Below are positions 2,336 to 12,757 of a DNA stretch of 13,791 nucleotides, in pieces. Source of the stretch: a virus. Its lineage: Duplodnaviria; Heunggongvirae; Uroviricota; Caudoviricetes. The translations under genes and the position numbers were made by a program. Location of the stretch: IMG/VR virus record IMGVR_UViG_2690316105_000002, positions 1 to 13,791 of that record. The stretch is one strand, 5' to 3'. The notes below the pieces were generated by a model, which was not told the origin of the DNA, did not search any database, and was given only the letters and a program-made list of their open reading frames with translations. The first letter of the stretch is position 1. Each line of letters opens with the position of its first letter.

Positions 2336-2890
2336 TTATTTTAAGGAAAGCAACTGCTCTACGGTCATGTTTTTAATTGCGCCCCGGTTAACAAGAGTCC
2401 ATCCCTGTTTTTCCAGATAAAACCGGAAAGTCTCCAGGGTACAGACCAGTGCGCCATCAGGAACGGTTTCGGTGAATTCGACATTGCCGAATTTGTCGAA
2501 GTGAACAACCAGAGTGCGACCATCACCCGGAATCATCTTGTCAGCAGGTGGGGTGTTATTCTGGCGCAGTTCGGCCTCCATGCGGTCGAACTCAGCAATG
2601 TAGGCTTCCTTGAATGCGGCGGCTTTTTTGCCAGTGAAGCCCATCACCAGGAAAACGAAGCCGTTTTTGGTGATTTGGTACATGGGGAGTTTGCGTCCGG
2701 TTGAGTCGGTATATTCGCTCGACACAAAATTGTGCCCAGTGAATTTTGCTGAACAGTCCAGATTGCGAATTTTATCCAGCACTCGTTCATGGCGCTTGCC
2801 AAAGAACTCTGCGATTGCAACAGACGTAGTGACAGCGCGACCATTTTCGATGGTTACGTCAGGGTGAGAAAGGGCAGGGATAGTAGCCAT
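2336..2890 (-). CDS. rha: Rha-family phage regulatory protein
   Basis: N-terminal segment VTTSVAIAEFFGKRHERVLDKIRNL matches the conserved Rha-domain core as recalled; AAGGAGG Shine-Dalgarno 8 nt upstream of the ATG at 2890. Confidence 0.75.
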   Translation of the reverse strand: MATIPALSHPDVTIENGRAVTTSVAIAEFFGKRHERVLDKIRNLDCSAKFTGHNFVSSEYTDSTGRKLPMYQITKNGFVFLVMGFTGKKAAAFKEAYIAEFDRMEAELRQNNTPPADKMIPGDGRTLVVHFDKFGNVEFTETVPDGALVCTLETFRFYLEKQGWTLVNRGAIKNMTVEQLLSLK

Positions 2891-3155
2891 TTTAGTGGCC
2901 TCCTTAACTGTTTTAGTCTGCGATTACCAGTTAGTAGCTGGTGATCGGGTGTCAACTAGAGCCAGTTAAGAAGCTCCGGGCATATTCCCCTTACGGGTAT
3001 TGTATTACGCCTCTCCACCCGATCTTTGTACGGATGTGCCGTATTTCAGGCATAAAAAAGCCGCAAGGCTATCGGGTGCGGATGACCGCTTAACTGTTTC
3101 TAGTGCGATCATCTTGCAACAATGCAGGTTGCTTTGTCAATATCCCGGATATCAG

Positions 3156-3209: not shown

Positions 3210-3530
3210 CTAAACTCTGATCAATCGTCTGAACAGTAACTGTTTAATATCCTGACGTTGGGAAAGAATCACGTGTGCAGTGATAATATCCTCCTCGACA
3301 GAGTACAGCACTCTGTAGCCTTCTGGTGTGTTGCACTCTCTGTATTTAGCCACGCCAAGCTTGAGCAACTCCGGGCATAACTGACATCCGGACGGGAATG
3401 CAGTAACTCTTGTTTCAAATCGCTCAAGAATTTCTGCTATTACAGGGCGTGGGTCAATGTCGTTACTCCGGAGATGGTCGGCAATTTGCTCAAGGCTTGT
3501 TCTGGCGGTAAGTGTGTATTCAACCTGCAT
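3210..3530 (-). CDS. parE: type II toxin, RelE/ParE superfamily (ParE-like), 106 aa
   Basis: Size and C-terminal pattern (GYRVLYSVEEDIITAHVILSQRQD) typical of ParE/RelE-fold toxins; starts 8 nt after the stop of a Phd/YefM-like ORF. Confidence 0.7.
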   Translation of the reverse strand: MQVEYTLTARTSLEQIADHLRSNDIDPRPVIAEILERFETRVTAFPSGCQLCPELLKLGVAKYRECNTPEGYRVLYSVEEDIITAHVILSQRQDIKQLLFRRLIRV

Positions 3531-3538
3531 AGTTAACC

Positions 3539-3772
3539 TTAGTTGTTAAAGCTATCCAGCAACTGTGCTTTTGAAAACACGCGACCTTCAGACTTGTCGT
3601 TTTCTGAAATAGTGAGAAGTTTCAGTAACGCAATAGCGTTCTCGCGTTCCTGTTGCTGCTCATAGGATTCAATTACGTATGCAGGAACACCATTCTGCGT
3701 GACAAGAATGGGTTCCGCCAGGTCCAGTGAGGCTGCGTTTTTCTTGATGTAGCTGATAGTTTCTATTTTCAT
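3539..3772 (-). CDS. phd: type II antitoxin, Phd/YefM family, 77 aa
   Basis: Small ORF directly upstream of the toxin; N-terminal region (ILVTQNGVPAYVIESYEQQQEREN) resembles Phd/YefM antitoxins; AAGGAA Shine-Dalgarno upstream of the ATG. Confidence 0.65.
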   Translation of the reverse strand: MKIETISYIKKNAASLDLAEPILVTQNGVPAYVIESYEQQQERENAIALLKLLTISENDKSEGRVFSKAQLLDSFNN

Positions 3773-5500: not shown

Positions 5501-5656
5501 TTACTCACCTGAGTTTCTTTCCAGCCAGCGACGCGCGCCAGATTCGGTTTTAAACGTTTTGCTTTTGGTATACGTCATCGCGGTGAACGTGCCGTCCTGG
5601 TTGGGAAACACGCCACACACCAGGGATTCGTTGTTGCCAAGATCGATAGTATCCAT
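5501..5656 (-). CDS. ydfA: small early protein, 51 aa (YdfA-like by size and order)
   Basis: Hand-translated: MDTIDLGNNESLVCGVFPNQDGTFTAMTYTKSKTFKTESGARRWLERNSGE. Ribosome-binding site GGAAATGAGG; first gene after the PL-like promoter. Confidence 0.45.
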   Translation of the reverse strand: MDTIDLGNNESLVCGVFPNQDGTFTAMTYTKSKTFKTESGARRWLERNSGE

Positions 5657-5729
5657 GCTGACCTCATTTCCCCTTAACGCCGGGTGGCGGAACTAAAACC
5701 TGTCGCACCGTTGTGCTTTGATGGAATAC

Positions 5730-5758
5730 ATTGTTCTCTTTAAATGAACATATGTCAA
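5730..5758 (-). promoter_or_regulatory. early-left (PL-like) promoter with embedded 17-bp operator
   Basis: Minus strand TTGACA (5753..5758), 17-nt spacer, AACAAT (5730..5735). Operator GTTCTCTTTAAATGAAC (5733..5749) is a near copy of the operator at the PR-like promoter. Confidence 0.55.
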
Positions 5759-5778
5759 CATTATGAATTCATAAAAGG

Positions 5779-5810
5779 CAAAAAAAACCGCCTTTCGGCG
5801 GTATTGTTTT
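5779..5810 (-). terminator. rho-independent terminator after the repressor gene
   Basis: CCGCC-TTTC-GGCGG hairpin (5788..5801) flanked by an A-tract on one side and a T-tract on the other; minus strand reads hairpin then TTTTTTTT. Confidence 0.7.
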
Positions 5811-5823
5811 GTAAAATAAAGAA

Positions 5824-6213
5824 TTATTTTTGACGCGTTGCTGGGTCAACGTATTCTGAATAAAATTCAGTCAGTTTTTGAAGTCGCATTTGAAAAGCTG
5901 CAAGCATATTTCTGCGTTCTACAGGTGGCAGATTTCTGTAAACATCAAGCAGGGCTTTCTCATCATCATCAAGTGTCTCTCTATTGCTATCTTCTTTTCC
6001 TGTCAGCAACCAGGAAAGGGATACGTTTGTAGCTTCTGCAATTTTTGCCGCGGAATCTTTACTGATTGTTCCTCTTTTTTTCCATGCGTTAACTGACGAG
6101 CGACCTACACCAGCGATACGCGCTAAATCTGAACCGCTTAAGTGATGCTGTTGCGAGATCGTATCTAACCTTTCTGCCAGCGGGGTGTCGTATTGCTTTT
6201 TTCTCATGTCCAT
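5824..6213 (-). CDS. prophage repressor, HTH (XRE-type), DicA/CI-like, 129 aa, no peptidase domain
   Basis: Helix-turn-helix segment (SGSDLARIAGVGRSSVNAWKKRG); divergent from a Cro-like gene; followed by a terminator and the left-operon promoter. Too short for a LexA-like autocleavage domain. Confidence 0.8.
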   Translation of the reverse strand: MDMRKKQYDTPLAERLDTISQQHHLSGSDLARIAGVGRSSVNAWKKRGTISKDSAAKIAEATNVSLSWLLTGKEDSNRETLDDDEKALLDVYRNLPPVERRNMLAAFQMRLQKLTEFYSEYVDPATRQK

Positions 6214-6295
6214 TTGGCAATTATAACCGTTCAGTGAACACTAACAATTTCTCAGGGTGTTGACTTACGTTCTTTTTAAGTGAACAATTGTTGTG
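6214..6295. promoter_or_regulatory. divergent PRM-like / PR-like promoters with operators
   Basis: PR-like (plus): TTGACT 6260..6265, 17 nt, AACAAT 6283..6288, with operator GTTCTTTTTAAGTGAAC at 6269..6285. PRM-like (minus): TTGTTA, 16 nt, TATAAT (plus 6220..6225) ending 7 nt before the repressor ATG. Extra palindrome GTTCAGTGAAC at 6229..6239. Confidence 0.6.
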
Positions 6296-6317
6296 TTTGA
6301 TTGAAGTGGAGGATTGT

Positions 6318-6593
6318 ATGACTGCTTTGGATAAAGCAATAAAGATTGCTGGTGGTATTCGCCCGTTAGGGCGCGCAATAGGGGCCTGGCCGTCCCAAAT
6401 ACACAAATGGGTAAATGAATACCATGGTCGAGTGCCGACAGGAGAACGAGTTCGCCAAATTTACCTTGCAACTGGGGTTACTCCTCATGAGTTGCGGCCA
6501 GATTTGTACCCCAACCCAACCGACGGTTTACCTGTTGGATGTAAGGCTAGCACACAAAATTCACGGGGGATGATTCATGAAAATCAGGCATGA
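6318..6593 (+). CDS. Cro-like HTH regulator (YdaS-like), 91 aa
   Basis: GGAGGA Shine-Dalgarno 4 nt before the ATG at 6318 (the track's TTG start at 6288 is less likely); first gene of the right operon. Confidence 0.7.
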   Translation: MTALDKAIKIAGGIRPLGRAIGAWPSQIHKWVNEYHGRVPTGERVRQIYLATGVTPHELRPDLYPNPTDGLPVGCKASTQNSRGMIHENQA

Positions 6594-6999
6594 GCACATC
6601 GAATCAGTGTTGTTAGCCCTGGCAGCCGAAAAAGGGCAGGCGTGGGTTGCCAACGCACTGACTGAAGAATATCTGCGCCAGGGGGGAGGTGAATTGTCTC
6701 TGACACCAGGCAAGGACTGGAATAATCAGCAGAACATCTATCATCGTTGGTTAAAAGGTGAAACGAAAGCGCAAAGGGAAAAAATTCAGAAACTGATCCC
6801 TGCGGTTCTGGCAATTCTTCCGCGTGAGCTGCGTCACCGACTCTGTATCTTCGATACCCTGGAACGCCGTGCATTACTGGCGGCGCAGGAAGCGTTGAGT
6901 ACGGCAATTGATGCGCATGATGACGCAGTTCAGGCCGTTTACCGGAAAGCACATTTCAGCGGTGGTGGGTCGTCCGACGATTCTGTCGTTGTGCATTGA
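6577..6999 (+). CDS. CII-like / YdaT-like protein, 140 aa
   Basis: Overlaps the Cro-like gene by 17 nt; GGGGGA ribosome-binding site; size and position match YdaT-family proteins as recalled. Confidence 0.6.
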   Translation: MKIRHEHIESVLLALAAEKGQAWVANALTEEYLRQGGGELSLTPGKDWNNQQNIYHRWLKGETKAQREKIQKLIPAVLAILPRELRHRLCIFDTLERRALLAAQEALSTAIDAHDDAVQAVYRKAHFSGGGSSDDSVVVH

Positions 7000-7089
7000 T
7001 GTTTATGCCGAACCTCCTCTGGTTCTGTTGATTGGGGAATCACAGATTATATCCGGAGGAAGGTTCGGCACCAGACGAGGTTTCTATAT

Positions 7090-7845
7090 ATGAGCATGAA
7101 ACTAATGGCAAAAGCAATGGAAATTAAAGTGGGTAATCCATTGCGTAAGCTGGTTCTGATTAAGCTGGCTGATAATGCCAGCGATCAGGGCGAGTGCTGG
7201 CCCAGCTACCAGTATATCGCTGACCAGTGCGAGATTAGCAAGCGTTCTGTGATTAATCATATTGCGGCGCTTTGTGAGTCCGGGCTGGTAAAAAAAATCA
7301 CCCGGAAAGGTGAAAAAGGTAATACAAGTAATATCTATCTCCTTCATCTGGATGGTGCAGAAAATTTACCGGGGAATAGTGCAAATAATTCGCTACATTG
7401 TGCATCAGATGCATCGGGTAGCGCAGGAGTTGCACCTGTTGCCAGTGCAGGAGTTGCACCCAGAACCAGTCACTCTTTTGAACCAGTCAATGAACCTGAT
7501 GTTGGTGGATCTGCTGACGCAGATCCACAGGTCAGTCATCGCGCAAAAAACAAAATCGACTGGCAGAGGGTTCTGGACAGCTATCACGAAATCCTGCCTG
7601 AAATGCCATCAGTGAAAATTCTGACGGATACTAGGAAAAAAAATCTGCGGACGTTCTGGCAGAAATTCGGTTTTGACCAGCAGCGATGGGAGTCCTATCT
7701 GCGATACGTTGCTGAGAACTGTCGCTGGATGCTGGAAGATCGTCCCAATGGCAGCGGTGGGTTCTGGAAGCGTAAAAACCTGGATTACCTGATCACCGAA
7801 CGGTGCTATGTCGCTGTCAAAGAGGCGCGGGCAAATGACAGATAA
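7090..7845 (+). CDS. phage replication initiation protein (N-terminal winged-helix DNA-binding domain), 251 aa
   Basis: N-terminal motif GECWPSYQYIADQCEISKRSVINHIAALCESGLV typical of phage replication-initiator HTH domains; Gly/Ser/Ala/Pro-rich linker containing direct DNA repeats; immediately followed by the helicase gene. Confidence 0.7.
   Translation: MSMKLMAKAMEIKVGNPLRKLVLIKLADNASDQGECWPSYQYIADQCEISKRSVINHIAALCESGLVKKITRKGEKGNTSNIYLLHLDGAENLPGNSANNSLHCASDASGSAGVAPVASAGVAPRTSHSFEPVNEPDVGGSADADPQVSHRAKNKIDWQRVLDSYHEILPEMPSVKILTDTRKKNLRTFWQKFGFDQQRWESYLRYVAENCRWMLEDRPNGSGGFWKRKNLDYLITERCYVAVKEARANDR
7423..7489. repeat. iteron-like direct repeats inside the initiator gene (candidate origin)
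   Basis: GCAGGAGTTGCACC at 7423..7436 and 7447..7460; GAACCAGTCA at 7463..7472 and 7480..7489; A-rich tract downstream around 7543..7556. Confidence 0.45.
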
Positions 7846-9238
7846 CACCTTTCCGGTGCCATACCGGGTCGATGCCGAACAGGCAGTGCTGGGGTGCCTG
7901 ATGGTAAACACCGACACTGAGCGTGCGGGGCAGGTGTATTCGATGCTGAAACCGGAGTCGTTTTACGTTGCGGCGCACAGGGTTATTTTCCGTGAAATTC
8001 GCGGACTTTTCCGCGCCGGAAAGCCTACGGACCTGCTCAGCCTTGCGAACGTGATCGAGGCGAAAAAACTGGATGCTGAGACTGGTGGCTTTGCGTACCT
8101 TGCTGAAATCAGCAGGAGTGCCACGCTATCGGCGATGGTTCACTACGCCGGGATTGTGCGGGAAAAATCCATCCTGCGGTACGCGGTGGAAAAATTACAT
8201 GCGTGCATCGGGATCATGAATCAGCCGACAGACACGAGTGCGACAGAACGACTTGGCGCAGTTCAACAGGTCATTGGCACGATGGCAGAGTATGCCAGAA
8301 CAGGAAAAACAGGCGGTCTGCGCCCGGTAAGTGATGTGGTTAACGACTGGATTGATGATCTTGAGCGTCGCTTTTCCAGCCCGGAGAACGCAGCGGGTCT
8401 GACGCTGGGGATTAGCTCTCTGGATCGGCTTATGGCCCCCAAACATGTGCTACGTGGTTCGCTGGTAGTGATTGGTGCAAGGCCGAAAATGGGTAAAAGC
8501 GCCTCGCTGAACAGGATTGTGACGCATTTTGCTCTGAATCATCGTCTGCCCACACTGGTATTCACCCTGGAAATGACAGATCGCAGCCTGGTTGAGCGCA
8601 TGGTTGCGCAGGAGGCGAGGGTAAATTCTGAAATTTTTTATGTCGGTGCCAGTGATGACTCGGATATGGCGCGGGCGATGGCGAAAGCCGCAGAACTGGC
8701 AGAATCAAACCTGATGATTGACAGCACACCAGGGGTAACGCTGGCCCATGTGATCGCTGAATGCCGGAAGGTTAAGCGTCAGCGTGGTGTTGTCGGCCTT
8801 GTGGCGATCGATTACCTGACGCTGATGAAGGCGGAAGCCGCGGAGCGTCGTGATATTGCTTTCGGGGATATCACAACGGGCTTAAAAAATCTCGCTAAAG
8901 AGCTGGACTGCGTGGTTTTACTTCTGACGCAACTTAACCGAAAACTCGAGGACAGGGCAGATAAACGCCCCACACCAAGCGACAGTCGCGACACCGGGCA
9001 GATTGAACAGGATTGCGATGTGTGGATTGGGTTGTACCGGGATGCTGTCTACAACCGTAACGCAGACTCTCAGCTTATGGAGCTGATTCTCCGTCTGAAC
9101 AGGGAGGGAGCAACAGGAACAGCATACGCCCTGATGGATAACGGTTCAGTGACTGATGTCAGCGCAGAGGATGCTGCCAGACGTCTGAGACTTGGTGGTC
9201 CGGCACGTAAACCCTACGCACAGACGGAGGATTTCTGA
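7835..9238 (+). CDS. dnaB: replicative DNA helicase, DnaB family
   Basis: DnaB-like N-terminal domain and Walker A-like motif GARPKMGKS; the ATG at 7835 overlaps the initiator stop (ATGACAGATAA); the track's upstream start at 7808 is less likely. Confidence 0.85.
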   Translation: MTDNTFPVPYRVDAEQAVLGCLMVNTDTERAGQVYSMLKPESFYVAAHRVIFREIRGLFRAGKPTDLLSLANVIEAKKLDAETGGFAYLAEISRSATLSAMVHYAGIVREKSILRYAVEKLHACIGIMNQPTDTSATERLGAVQQVIGTMAEYARTGKTGGLRPVSDVVNDWIDDLERRFSSPENAAGLTLGISSLDRLMAPKHVLRGSLVVIGARPKMGKSASLNRIVTHFALNHRLPTLVFTLEMTDRSLVERMVAQEARVNSEIFYVGASDDSDMARAMAKAAELAESNLMIDSTPGVTLAHVIAECRKVKRQRGVVGLVAIDYLTLMKAEAAERRDIAFGDITTGLKNLAKELDCVVLLLTQLNRKLEDRADKRPTPSDSRDTGQIEQDCDVWIGLYRDAVYNRNADSQLMELILRLNREGATGTAYALMDNGSVTDVSAEDAARRLRLGGPARKPYAQTEDF

Positions 9239-9404: not shown

Positions 9405-10166
9405 ATGGAAACTGTTTTTGACGCACTGAAAGCAATGGGAAAAGCCACATCCACAGAACTTGCTGCGCGACTTGATATCAGTCGTGAAGAAGTGCTGAAC
9501 GAACTATGGGAACTGAAAAAGGCTGGTTTTGTTGATAAAAGCGCGTACACCTGGCGTGTGGCTGATAACAACGTTCAGCAGGAACAGCCAGCGCAGGCAG
9601 AACTGCCGGAAGAAACCACCACAGCAACAGTAGCGAAAATCTCAGAGTGCGATTTAACCGCGACGATTGAACAACGCGGACCACAAACGGCTGATGAGCT
9701 GGCTACATTGTTTGGTACCACATCACGCAAAGTGGCTTCAACGCTGGCAATGGCAATCAGCAAAGGTCGTCTGATTCGCGTAAATCAGGGCGGTAAATTT
9801 CGTTACTGCATACCGGGCGATAATTTACCAGCAGAGCCGAAAGCAGCATCGGTAGCGGAAACTGATGGTAAGGCCTTTCCTCAGCCCGCAGGTGTTGCAT
9901 TACCAGTACAGGAGGCTGCAACACAGGAAGATATTAAAACAGAAACGGTGGCGGACATTGTGCAGTCGCTGCCATTGTTCACCGAAACGCGAGCGGATGA
10001 CCTGGTTTTACCATCGCTGCATATGGCAAACCGCGAACTGCGTCGGGCGAAAAGTCATGTCCAGAAGTGGGAGCGTGTCTGCGCCGCGCTGCGGGAGCTG
10101 AATAAACACCGGGACGTTGTCCGGCAGATTGTCGACTCTTCCCGCCGTGTTGCATCGGAAAAGTGA
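9405..10166 (+). CDS. hypothetical phage protein with two winged-helix-like segments, 253 aa
   Basis: ORF track; GGAGG 8 nt upstream; two HTH-like stretches (residues about 10-50 and 90-130). Confidence 0.6.
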
Positions 10167-11629: not shown

Positions 11630-11798
11630 TTTTGGTTCAACTAAATACAACGTCAGTTTTAAAGAATGGCATGAACTGTTAATGGCCTATGCAGAGTTAC
11701 GCGGTGGAAGTGCTGCTGATGCCGATGCATGGCGTGATGCTTATGAAGCAGGAAAAACACCGGTCGAAGCATATTGTGATGAGTGGGGCGATGAATGA
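11622..11798 (+). CDS. hypothetical small protein, 58 aa
   Basis: Hand-translated (MADFGSTKYNVSFKEWHELLMAYAELRGG...); GAGGAAG ribosome-binding site; overlaps both neighbours (8 nt upstream, ATGA downstream). Confidence 0.45.
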   Translation: MADFGSTKYNVSFKEWHELLMAYAELRGGSAADADAWRDAYEAGKTPVEAYCDEWGDE

Positions 11799-12425: not shown

Positions 12426-12601
12426 TGCAGCGGGTGCTTGAGGCTATCTGTCTCAGGCATGAACACCAAAAGGCAGATAGAGAAAAGCCCCAGTTAACAT
12501 TACGCGTCCGGCAAGACGCTTAACATTAAGCTGAGGCTCAATCCATGCTGAACACATGTAGGTTAGCCTCTTACGTGCCGAAAGGCAAGGAGAAGCAGGC
12601 T

Positions 12602-12757
12602 ATGAAGCAGCAAAAGGCGATGTTAATCGCCCTGATCGTCATCTGTTTAACCGTCATAGCGACGGCACTGGTAACGAGGAAAGACCTCTGTGAGGTACGA
12701 ATCCGAACCGGCCAGACGGAGGTCGCTGTCTTCGTAGACTACGAATCTAGAGAGTAA
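12602..12757 (+). CDS. hok: Hok/Gef-family type I toxin, 51 aa
   Basis: MKQQKAMLIALIVICLTVIATALVTRKDLCEVRIRTGQTEVAVFVDYESRE: membrane helix followed by the conserved LVTRKDLCEV-RIRTGQTEVAVF core of Hok/Gef toxins as recalled; long structured leader and 3' UTR; in-frame upstream ATG at 12545. Confidence 0.85.
   Translation: MKQQKAMLIALIVICLTVIATALVTRKDLCEVRIRTGQTEVAVFVDYESRE

Follow-up and report, generated by a model that had tools for sequence, protein, structure and literature searches.

The 13,791-nt stretch of viral DNA analysed here (the window) very likely contains the immunity switch of an E. coli prophage that is lambda-like and of the same type as Rac, Qin and CP-933P. In this switch, a small repressor would act on dyads in the early promoters PR and PL, and it would not undergo self-cleavage (Table 1). 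Both the repressor class and the type of switch have been described before; what is new is a DNA specificity within a known kind of phage switch, a finding that we regard as real, well supported and ordinary and that leaves the current understanding of phage switches unchanged.

Table 1. Features of the putative immunity switch and its surroundings, in window coordinates.
Feature	Position	Strand	Remarks
ydfA-like gene (DUF1391), first gene of the PL operon	5501..5656	-	Pfam PF07151, E 1.5e-29; gene order as dicA-ydfA-ydfB-ydfC of K-12
5' leader of the PL transcript	5660..5722	-	conserved, probably structured; kept in heteroimmune relatives and Qin
PL-like promoter, TTGACA-N17-AACAAT	5730..5758	-	sigma-70 scan; serves early-left genes from ydfA-like onward; +1 predicted at about 5723
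Left operator (putative), OL1-like, GTTCTCTTTAAATGAAC	5733..5749		PL spacer; overlaps -10 hexamer
Intrinsic terminator, ACCGCCGAAAGGCGGT then T8	5787..5802	-	terminator scan; past repressor gene, parts repressor from PL
Immunity repressor gene, 129 aa	5824..6213	-	HTH of Cro/CI type at the N-terminus, two-helix hairpin at the C-terminus; peptidase domain absent
PRM-like promoter, TTGTTA-N16-TATAAT	6220..6247	-	sigma-70 scan, 10/12 matches; spacer contains 11-bp palindrome
Single half-site, CAGTGAACAC	6232..6241		within PRM spacer; partly overlapped by 11-bp palindrome 6229-6239
PR-like promoter, TTGACT-N17-AACAAT	6260..6288	+	sigma-70 scan; serves cro-like ydaS, then ydaT; +1 predicted at about 6295
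Right operator (putative), OR1-like, GTTCTTTTTAAGTGAAC	6269..6285		PR spacer; overlaps first 3 nt of -10 hexamer
Weak operator-like 17-mer, GTTGTGTTTGATTGAAG	6290..6306		21 bp downstream of OR1, over predicted PR start; uncertain
ydaS, Cro-like, 91 aa	6318..6593	+	Pfam PF15943, E 1.3e-10; phrog_35 transcriptional repressor; HTH covaries with operator class
Inverted repeat TGATT-N6-AATCA	6571..6586		ydaS/ydaT junction; candidate YdaT site
ydaT, CII-like, 140 aa	6577..6999	+	Pfam PF06254; full-length match to solved YdaT-family chain 8bt1 and 3c4r

At the centre of this switch are two 17-mers, GTTCTTTTTAAGTGAAC (6269-6285) and GTTCTCTTTAAATGAAC (5733-5749), which are identical at 15/17 positions when read on the + strand. 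The sequence-only reading had located both of them, as well as an 11-mer palindrome at 6229-6239, exactly where they occur, and it had also claimed that the 17-mers occupy the same place within the two early promoters. Indeed, each follows a -35 hexamer of the form TTGACN at a distance of 3 nt and runs into a -10 hexamer with the sequence AACAAT, and the two elements read TTGACT-TAC-(17-mer)-AAT (6260-6288, + strand) and TTGACA-TAT-(17-mer)-AAT (5758-5730, - strand) in identical register. The exact pattern GTTC-N9-GAAC has just these two matches in the 13.8-kb window, with ~0.2 expected (13791/4^8). The complete 29-nt promoter-plus-operator pattern is likewise found twice, compared with 0.12 expected matches, although this count is weak evidence, as the pattern was derived from the same two sites. 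When scored with a weight matrix made from 19 distinct operators, the window's own two among them, the sites at 6269-6285 and 5733-5749 reach 28.1 and 26.8 bits, respectively, whereas the maximum in 50 shuffles was 14.1 bits. A further match at 11635-11651 (15.3 bits) was set aside as a probable chance hit, lying within a coding region just past the start codon and barely above the shuffle maximum.

Comparison with about 90 related loci shows how these elements have been maintained. In the 29 loci that share the repressor helix [GS]RSSVNAW[KR]KRG, the dyad is present in the same register at both promoters. Among the 19 distinct 17-mers of this GTTC class, positions 1, 3-4 and 13-17 are invariant and position 2 shows a single exception, while variation is confined to positions 5-12 and is greatest at positions 6, 9 and 11. 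Heteroimmune relatives carry other 17-mers in the same register, namely GTTAG-N7-CTAAC, GTTG-N9-CAAC and TTAGCC-N3-AGCTCAA, and these classes track different repressor helices (SRSSVN.W[YHF]KRG, SRSAA.RW and SPTSVTNW). As in lambdoid modules, a seemingly immunity-specific dyad is thus common to PR and PL: the PR operators of the GTTC class are on average identical to the PL operators of their own class at 14.5/17 positions, as opposed to 8.8/17 for the PL operators of other classes, and none of 20000 permutations over 13 representative loci reached the observed within-locus PR/PL match. The match between the PL and PR 17-mers is poor in some loci of the GTTAG and GTTG classes (mean 9.9 and 10.2 of 17), which reflects either mosaic PL regions or a wrong register there.

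Covariation as such cannot tell the repressor from YdaS as the binder, given the shared phylogeny of the loci and the inheritance of the module in one block. The recognition helix of YdaS follows the operator class as cleanly as that of the repressor (RPSSLNKW, SRSSVNRW and KPSSLSRW in the other classes versus WPSQIHKW in the window), and the YdaS protein of CP-933P footprints the same intergenic region (PMC8630535). Nevertheless, we consider it improbable that only the Cro-like YdaS uses the 17-mers as operators, with the 129-aa protein acting elsewhere or via other sequences. Both proteins share their operators in lambda, P22 and CP-933P (PMC8630535), the same dyad is found at PL, a promoter that has to be silent in the lysogen, where Cro is lacking, and the repressor homologue DicA recognises a dyad of similar form, GTTAG-N7-CTAAC (PMC3441716). 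An even simpler explanation, in which the 17-mers resemble each other merely as parts of duplicated or homologous promoters and form a spacer without a regulatory protein partner, could draw on the shared -35 and -10 hexamers and spacing of PR and PL, which make a common descent of the 29-nt element plausible. However, it appears barely credible, given that the spacer centre drifts within a class while the outer dyad bases are fixed, unlike in a neutral spacer, that the hexamers stay between classes while the dyad changes along with two HTH proteins, and that promoter function leaves the dyad symmetry unexplained. The position shared by nearly all relatives, the fixed outer half-sites and the covariation over four classes rather argue that the two 17-mers are very probably binding sites of the small repressor, in agreement with the earlier proposal of operators at both early promoters.

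The repressor itself matches Phage_CI_repr (PF07022; E 1.4e-12, 48.2 bits versus a cut-off of 22) and HTH_3 in Pfam, with no Peptidase_S24 match at E <= 0.01 and no space for such a domain beyond residue 72. An AlphaFold2 model (pLDDT 81.6), based on an alignment that left out DicA, comprises helices spanning residues 11-71 and 83-121, corresponding to an HTH domain followed by a two-helix hairpin, and its HTH domain superposes on the DNA-binding domains of 434 and P22 C2. The closest solved sequence is 186 CI (2fjr, E 0.003), whereas among solved structures SinR, complexed with its antagonist SinI, matches best (1b0n_A; E 4.6e-4, TM-score 0.41-0.50, 24% identity). Like the window repressor, this Bacillus subtilis protein combines a 434-like HTH with a two-helix oligomerisation hairpin, which is captured by the small antagonist; yet SinR is not a phage repressor, and the architectural analogy is evidence for neither homology nor an antagonist here. 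Sequence homologues include DicA (25% identity, E 9e-7, residues 30-122, which we count as full-length homology) and gp39 of mEp237 (37% identity over the full length, E 3e-29), for which the depositors annotate similarity to a regulator of S. Typhimurium 14028S. The C-terminal hairpin (LPP.ERRNMLAAFQMRL) is near-invariant over at least four heteroimmune classes with differing recognition helices and operators.

In its size and architecture (~125-155 aa, HTH, short helical C-terminus), the 129-aa protein falls within the class of short non-cleavable repressors formed by DicA, Gifsy GfoR-GtgR and PaaR2, an established type that the sequence-only reading had missed. Repressors of this short lambdoid class have been found to be uncleaved by experiment (PMC3121763, PMC10448788, PMC8630535), with DicA and the Gifsy repressors being released by antirepressors instead (PMC10448788; PMC3121763). 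Since the catalytic peptidase domain is absent, inactivation of the window repressor by RecA-stimulated self-cleavage is unlikely, and the corresponding suggestion of the sequence-only reading is borne out by the presence of HTH families alone in Pfam, the HTH-plus-hairpin model and the homology with DicA and gp39.

The promoters surrounding the repressor gene show a conserved layout. A 104-bp gap with back-to-back PRM and PR separates the repressor ATG at 6213 from the ydaS ATG at 6318, as it does in relatives, and in nearly all of them a constant 51-52 nt separates GTTGAC from the ATG of the repressor. Similarly, most of the related loci have the PL TTGAC/TTGAT hexamer 65-69 nt past the stop codon of the repressor gene, and relatives also possess an equivalent GC hairpin and T-run in place of the terminator. 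The TATAAT -10 hexamer of PRM ends only 6 nt ahead of the ATG, without a Shine-Dalgarno sequence, which predicts a leaderless repressor mRNA. The relatives compared show the same spacing (6-7 nt) and lack a Shine-Dalgarno sequence as well, and the paaR2 mRNA of CP-933P was shown to be leaderless by 5'RACE (PMC8630535). On the other side, 90.9% of cells are paired in the PL leader, compared with 30-46% when the partners are slid, although Rfam searches of the leader and the intergenic region gave no family, with chance-level matches only.

Each promoter side contains a single full dyad, rather than the three tandem operators (OR1-3, OL1-3) of a lambda-type switch, and the candidate auxiliary 17-mers are weak, scoring 5.0 and 2.9 bits with the weight matrix. 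The lower score belongs to the site at 6290-6306, which is nearer to the consensus in relatives (GTTGTGGTTAGTTGAAC; GAATTCAGTTAGTGAAC) and missing from the Salmonella lineage. The palindrome noted before in the PRM spacer, GTTCAGTGAAC, is present as described, but in its full form it is confined to the E. coli lineage. What stays unchanged across the lineages of E. coli, Lelliottia, Salmonella and Klebsiella is the half-site CAGTGAACAC alone, and GTTC at 6229-6232 is found just in E. coli. We also considered GTTCAGTGAACACTAAC (6229-6245, one mismatch) as a conserved OR2 and rejected it, as the lineages of Lelliottia, Salmonella and Klebsiella preserve neither outer half-site. A regular 23-bp phasing of the GTGAAC half-sites, by analogy with the four equally spaced repeats of CP-933P, was dismissed too, the actual offsets being 46 and 21 bp.

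In the switch that we propose, the near-consensus PRM would transcribe the repressor gene, probably as a leaderless mRNA, while PR would read divergently into ydaS and ydaT, the putative equivalents of cro and cII, and PL, beyond the repressor's terminator, leftward into the ydfA-like and further early-left genes. In PR as well as in PL, a repressor dimer would sit between the -35 and -10 hexamers on the 17-bp dyad GTTCT-N7-TGAAC, one HTH contacting each half-site, and would thereby cover the first three bases of the -10 hexamer and exclude RNA polymerase. The half-site in the PRM spacer, and possibly the weak site over the PR start, may serve as auxiliary sites that are filled cooperatively by repressor molecules oligomerising via their C-terminal helical hairpins, which would result in negative autoregulation. 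YdaS, in turn, could shut PRM through the same sites.

Derepression would most likely be brought about by an antirepressor protein or by stochastic switching. A search for LexA boxes (CTGT-N8-ACAG with <=1 mismatch; 20-mer consensus score) produced nothing convincing in the window, the related loci L001, L091 and L093 and nine further relatives, nor did tblastn detect a homologue of Rem, whether in the window itself, in a related complete prophage or in a relative from Salmonella; L094 was negative for both. The locus thus lends no support to the antirepressor part of the model. The earlier suggestion that Rha might act as the derepressor found no backing either, with the Rha-like gene (2336-2890) lying within the PL operon that the repressor itself would shut off. 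These negative results would suit a prophage that is not SOS-inducible and changes state with no antirepressor involved, by a stochastic flip or because the repressor loses its hold on DNA under stress. There is precedent for such behaviour in the spontaneous RecA- and Rem-independent switching of dicBp in Qin (PMC10448788) and in the bistability of CP-933P, which is unreactive to mitomycin C (PMC8630535). We regard this scenario as possible and hold it only tentatively, because the antirepressors of the Gifsy prophages work in trans from other prophages (PMC3121763), such that their absence in cis says little, and because a C-terminal hairpin that is near-invariant across heteroimmune classes fits a shared protein partner. 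It is tempting to speculate, even if the idea is rather unlikely to be correct, that the hairpin is where a trans-acting antirepressor, encoded elsewhere and not controlled by LexA, docks on repressors of different immunity, enabling the co-induction of heteroimmune prophages. If so, one signal outside the SOS response would co-induce prophages of differing immunities in Escherichia, Salmonella, Klebsiella and Enterobacter.

Among the known systems, CP-933P, a cryptic prophage of E. coli O157:H7 whose PaaR2/YdaS/YdaT module has been characterised experimentally, is similar to the window in layout and components. These include a divergently transcribed short CI-like repressor without a peptidase motif, the likeness of the repressors being one of architecture, and YdaS in the role of Cro and YdaT in that of CII (PMC8630535, PMC9986795). 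Its dyad operators, some of them with only one half conserved, similarly extend over PRM, PR and a separate PL (PMC8630535), and in both regions an inverted repeat of the YdaT type lies where ydaS and ydaT meet. The footprinted YdaT site of CP-933P, TTGATT-N6-AATCAA (PMC9986795), agrees in core and location with the repeat at 6571-6586, whose sequence has 2 exact matches in the window versus 0.04 expected. The two systems differ in their operator half-sites, with a GTTTAGTAA consensus in CP-933P and GTTC..GAAC in the window, and in the context of the repressor gene, which is co-transcribed with the paaA2-parE2 toxin-antitoxin genes in CP-933P, whereas in the window it ends in a terminator, with a ParE/Phd pair 2 kb away in the PL region.

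DicA, from the Qin prophage of K-12, resembles the window repressor in its HTH and its LL..LP..E C-terminal region, and Qin also has the downstream order ydfA-ydfB-ydfC. Like the window repressor, DicA has no cleavage site, and it is released by the antirepressor Rem (PMC10448788), for which the window has no detected homologue. Moreover, its operator Oc (TTGTTAGTCATAACTAACAA; PMC3441716) lies past the dicC -10 hexamer instead of within the spacer and differs in sequence from the operators of the window, and DicC shows no detectable similarity to the window YdaS. The GfoR, GfhR and GtgR proteins of the Salmonella Gifsy prophages are likewise small, non-cleaved lambdoid repressors, with the depositors' annotation of gp39 as the link to the window. 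These heteroimmune repressors share a conserved part, so that one antirepressor acts on several of them (PMC3121763). The Gifsy antirepressors are encoded in a LexA-controlled dinI operon ~1.3 kb to the right of the replication genes, whereas the corresponding region here contains neither a LexA box nor dinI. With lambda CI, P22 C2 and 434, finally, the window shares divergent PRM and PR promoters, a distant PL and 17-bp dyads overlapping the promoters, but its repressor lacks the S24 peptidase/dimerisation domain, and its PRM has a consensus -10 hexamer, whereas lambda-type PRM promoters need activation.

The operator GTTCT-N7-TGAAC and its heteroimmune variants could make prophage immunity groups predictable from sequence, and the change of the fourth half-site base with class offers a natural specificity-swap set for the study of HTH-DNA recognition. 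In addition, knowing the operator marks these prophages as probably lying outside the RecA-cleavage rule of lambda, which bears on the question of which antibiotics mobilise them. INPHARED contains no described phage above 60% repressor identity, and the operator strings did not occur in the literature searched. The module is nonetheless widespread, with the repressor cluster at 98% identity comprising at least 1000 contigs and a 751-bp region being present near full-length in 82 complete E. coli genomes, O157:H7 included. The best complete-genome match covers 85% of the window, the segment 2890-5277 being mosaic. In the O157:H7 relative, the same repressor type lies upstream of the dicB cell-division inhibitor operon.

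Both 17-mers and the shorter palindrome were confirmed at the positions given by the sequence-only reading, and a generic sigma-70 scan, which located the promoters independently, returned three promoter-like elements. In the PR and PL elements, the -35 hexamer is followed by 3 nt and then by the 17-mer, which shares its final three bases with the start of the -10 hexamer. Exact GTTC-N9-GAAC matches occur only at these two sites within the window, and a weight matrix trained on 19 distinct related operators assigns them 28.1 and 26.8 bits, compared with a maximum of 14.1 bits in 50 shuffles. Both counts speak for more than chance. The third-best match, GTTGTATTTAGTTGAAC at 11635-11651 (-), scores 15.3 bits against the same shuffle maximum; it lies within a coding region, 13 nt past a start codon, and is kept in the closest complete genome (L001). 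It is probably a chance match and could alternatively be a distal site.

Coordinates of the switch region and its surroundings
Feature	Position	Strand	Remark
Left 17-mer GTTCTCTTTAAATGAAC	5733-5749		sequence read
Right 17-mer (OR1) GTTCTTTTTAAGTGAAC	6269-6285	+	15/17 identical to left 17-mer on this strand
11-bp palindrome GTTCAGTGAAC	6229-6239		sequence read
PR, TTGACT-N17-AACAAT	6260-6288	+	promoter-like, sigma-70 scan
PL, TTGACA-N17-AACAAT	5758-5730	-	promoter-like, sigma-70 scan
PRM, TTGTTA-N16-TATAAT	6247-6220	-	promoter-like, sigma-70 scan
129-aa HTH protein (repressor)	5824-6213	-	Pfam Phage_CI_repr + HTH_3, no other family
YdaS-family Cro-like gene	6318-6593		divergent from repressor
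YdaT-family CII-like gene	6577-6999
Replication genes	7090-9238
Intrinsic terminator	5787-5802		left of repressor gene, ahead of PL
TGATT-N6-AATCA	6571-6586		ydaS/ydaT junction, YdaT's binding place in CP-933P
TGATT-N6-AATCA	9772-9787		inside DUF1627 gene
TTGATT-N4-AATCA, related repeat	7028-7042		directly after ydaT
Rha-like gene	2336-2890	-	Pfam Phage_pRha; within PL operon

For comparison, about 90 loci were fetched, with repressor homologues graded from 100% to ~54% identity in Escherichia, Salmonella, Klebsiella, Lelliottia, Enterobacter, Cronobacter and Raoultella. Their layout is constant, with 51-52 nt in the relatives from the PR -35 GTTGAC to the repressor ATG, 65-69 nt from the repressor stop codon to the PL -35 and 6-7 nt from the PRM -10 end to the repressor ATG. 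GTTC-N9-GAAC recurs at PR and PL, in the same register, in the 29 loci that share the repressor helix of the window's immunity class. The 19 distinct 17-mers of this class never differ at positions 1, 3-4 and 13-17 and show a single exception at position 2; the variation falls in the centre (positions 5-12), above all at 6, 9 and 11, as would be expected if a dyad is contacted at its two ends. Between classes, the promoter hexamers are kept and the 17-mer is altered.

Operators and recognition helices of the immunity classes
Operator	Repressor helix	YdaS helix
GTTC-N9-GAAC (window)	[GS]RSSVNAW[KR]KRG	WPSQIHKW
GTTAG-N7-CTAAC	SRSSVN.W[YHF]KRG	RPSSLNKW
GTTG-N9-CAAC	SRSAA.RWF.RG	SRSSVNRW
TTAGCC-N3-AGCTCAA	SPTSVTNWFKR.	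KPSSLSRW

PR and PL operators resemble each other far more within a class than across classes; for the GTTC class, they agree at 14.5/17 positions within the class versus 8.8/17 between classes. The within-locus PR/PL match in 13 representative loci was reached by none of 20000 permutations; agreement between the two 17-mers is poor in some loci of the GTTAG and GTTG classes. The covariation of operators and helices comes from loci related by descent, and it is silent on which HTH protein, repressor or YdaS, binds, because the module is passed on as one block. Overall, we consider it very likely that the window's 17-mers act as operators of the repressor switch, as had been proposed for both early promoters.

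The palindrome in the PRM spacer is invariant in the E. coli members; other lineages do not keep it in full. Lelliottia, Salmonella and Klebsiella lineages (repressor identity 78-81%) have other bases in place of the GTTC at 6229-6232 and retain only CAGTGAACAC (6232-6241), which agrees with the OR1 right half, AAGTGAACAA; one conserved half-site thus lies in the PRM spacer. By register, it corresponds to a fuller dyad in other classes, such as ATTAGCCGTTGGCTTAT in a Salmonella locus (L023). A second, weak 17-mer, GTTG-N9-GAAG (6290-6306), occurs 21 bp past OR1; several relatives have it in a form nearer to the consensus, and one lineage lacks it. Both elements may be auxiliary sites that are filled cooperatively.

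Pfam detected no S24 peptidase in the repressor, in line with the peptidase-free protein described earlier. In its AlphaFold model (pLDDT 81.6), a linker joins a five-helix HTH domain (11-71) to a helical hairpin (83-121); the best match among solved structures is SinR bound to its antagonist SinI, followed by the DNA-binding domains of 434 and P22 C2. Full-length alignments give 25% identity to DicA and 37% to mEp237 gp39. The motif LPP.ERRNMLAAFQMRL of the C-terminal hairpin (residues 83-121; window 5851-5967, -) is near-invariant in heteroimmune classes and in relatives down to 54% identity, exceeding the DNA-binding helices in conservation. This suggests that the hairpin is a constrained protein-protein interface, serving oligomerisation or binding of a shared antagonist. 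In phage mEp237 (L092 1014-1893), two paralogues of this family stand in tandem: gp39, annotated at 155 aa, and gp38, with 130 aa and 43% identity to the window protein. E. coli O157:H7 strain 7.1_Anguil (L094 18494-20558) has the same repressor type, at about 91% DNA identity, upstream of a dicB-containing PL operon, where it probably fills the role of Qin's DicA.

This kind of repressor, this module layout and the lack of self-cleavage were established before. Gifsy repressors are not cleaved and are released by small LexA-controlled antirepressors, and DicA and RacR were counted among this group (Lemire et al., PMC3121763). DicA, whose target dyad Oc is TTGTTAGTCATAACTAACAA (PMC3441716), is relieved by the antirepressor Rem, with RecA-independent spontaneous switching also seen (Ragunathan and Vanderpool, PMC10448788). 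The CP-933P switch has a leaderless PaaR2 without peptidase motif, YdaS as Cro and YdaT as CII, and its footprints cover PRM, PR and PL, some repeats keeping only one half (Jurenas et al., PMC8630535). The window therefore represents another immunity type of a known kind of switch. INPHARED has no phage with a repressor >60% identical to the window's, and none of the papers searched contains these operator strings; the GTTC-N9-GAAC specificity seems undescribed.

As to induction, no LexA box was found in the window, a complete related prophage, or Salmonella and other relatives, and tblastn found no Rem homologue in the window, L001, L091, L093 or L094. Rha, raised earlier as a possible derepressor, is unlikely to be the primary inducer: being encoded in the PL operon, it would appear only once repression has been lifted. 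Induction may run through a trans-acting antirepressor or through switching that is stochastic or stress-dependent, with low confidence in any one of these routes.

Exact TGATT-N6-AATCA repeats number two in the window, with 0.04 expected. The YdaT site of CP-933P, TTGATT-N6-AATCAA at the ydaS end (PMC9986795), lies at exactly the same ydaS/ydaT junction as one of them. The predicted PL transcript opens with ~60 nt (CATCAAAGCACAACGGTGCGACAGGTTTTAGTTCCGCCACCCGGCGTTAAGGGG, 5660-5722, -) that are conserved in heteroimmune relatives and in the dicA-ydfA gap of Qin (L002), occur once in the window and match no Rfam family. Short helices with some compensatory changes, and possibly a small pseudoknot, lie in this leader just ahead of the ydfA ribosome-binding site; the leader could act in processing, antitermination or translation.

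As a whole, the window is an E. coli prophage of the lambda-like type. Several complete genomes contain the 751 bp around the operators at 100% identity; the prophage of strain FDAARGOS_943 is inserted adjoining yebY. Reading from PL, a DUF1391/ydfA-like gene comes first, then ydfB and ydfC, the same order as downstream of dicA in Qin. Segment 2890-5277 is mosaic, missing from the closest complete genome, and contains a ParE-toxin/Phd-YefM-antitoxin pair (3210-3772, -) that recalls the paaA2-parE2 pair in the CP-933P immunity region. At its start, position 2890, homology of the Rha-family gene to L001 breaks (184 aa in the window versus 283 aa at L001 7567-8418). An sRNA-Xcc1 Rfam match (2935-3024, -; 67.4 bits, gathering score 53) lies between the Rha-like and ParE genes, and a hok/sok type I toxin-antitoxin locus (12432-12607, +; ORF 12545-12757; Rfam sok 118.7 bits) lies to the right of the replication genes.
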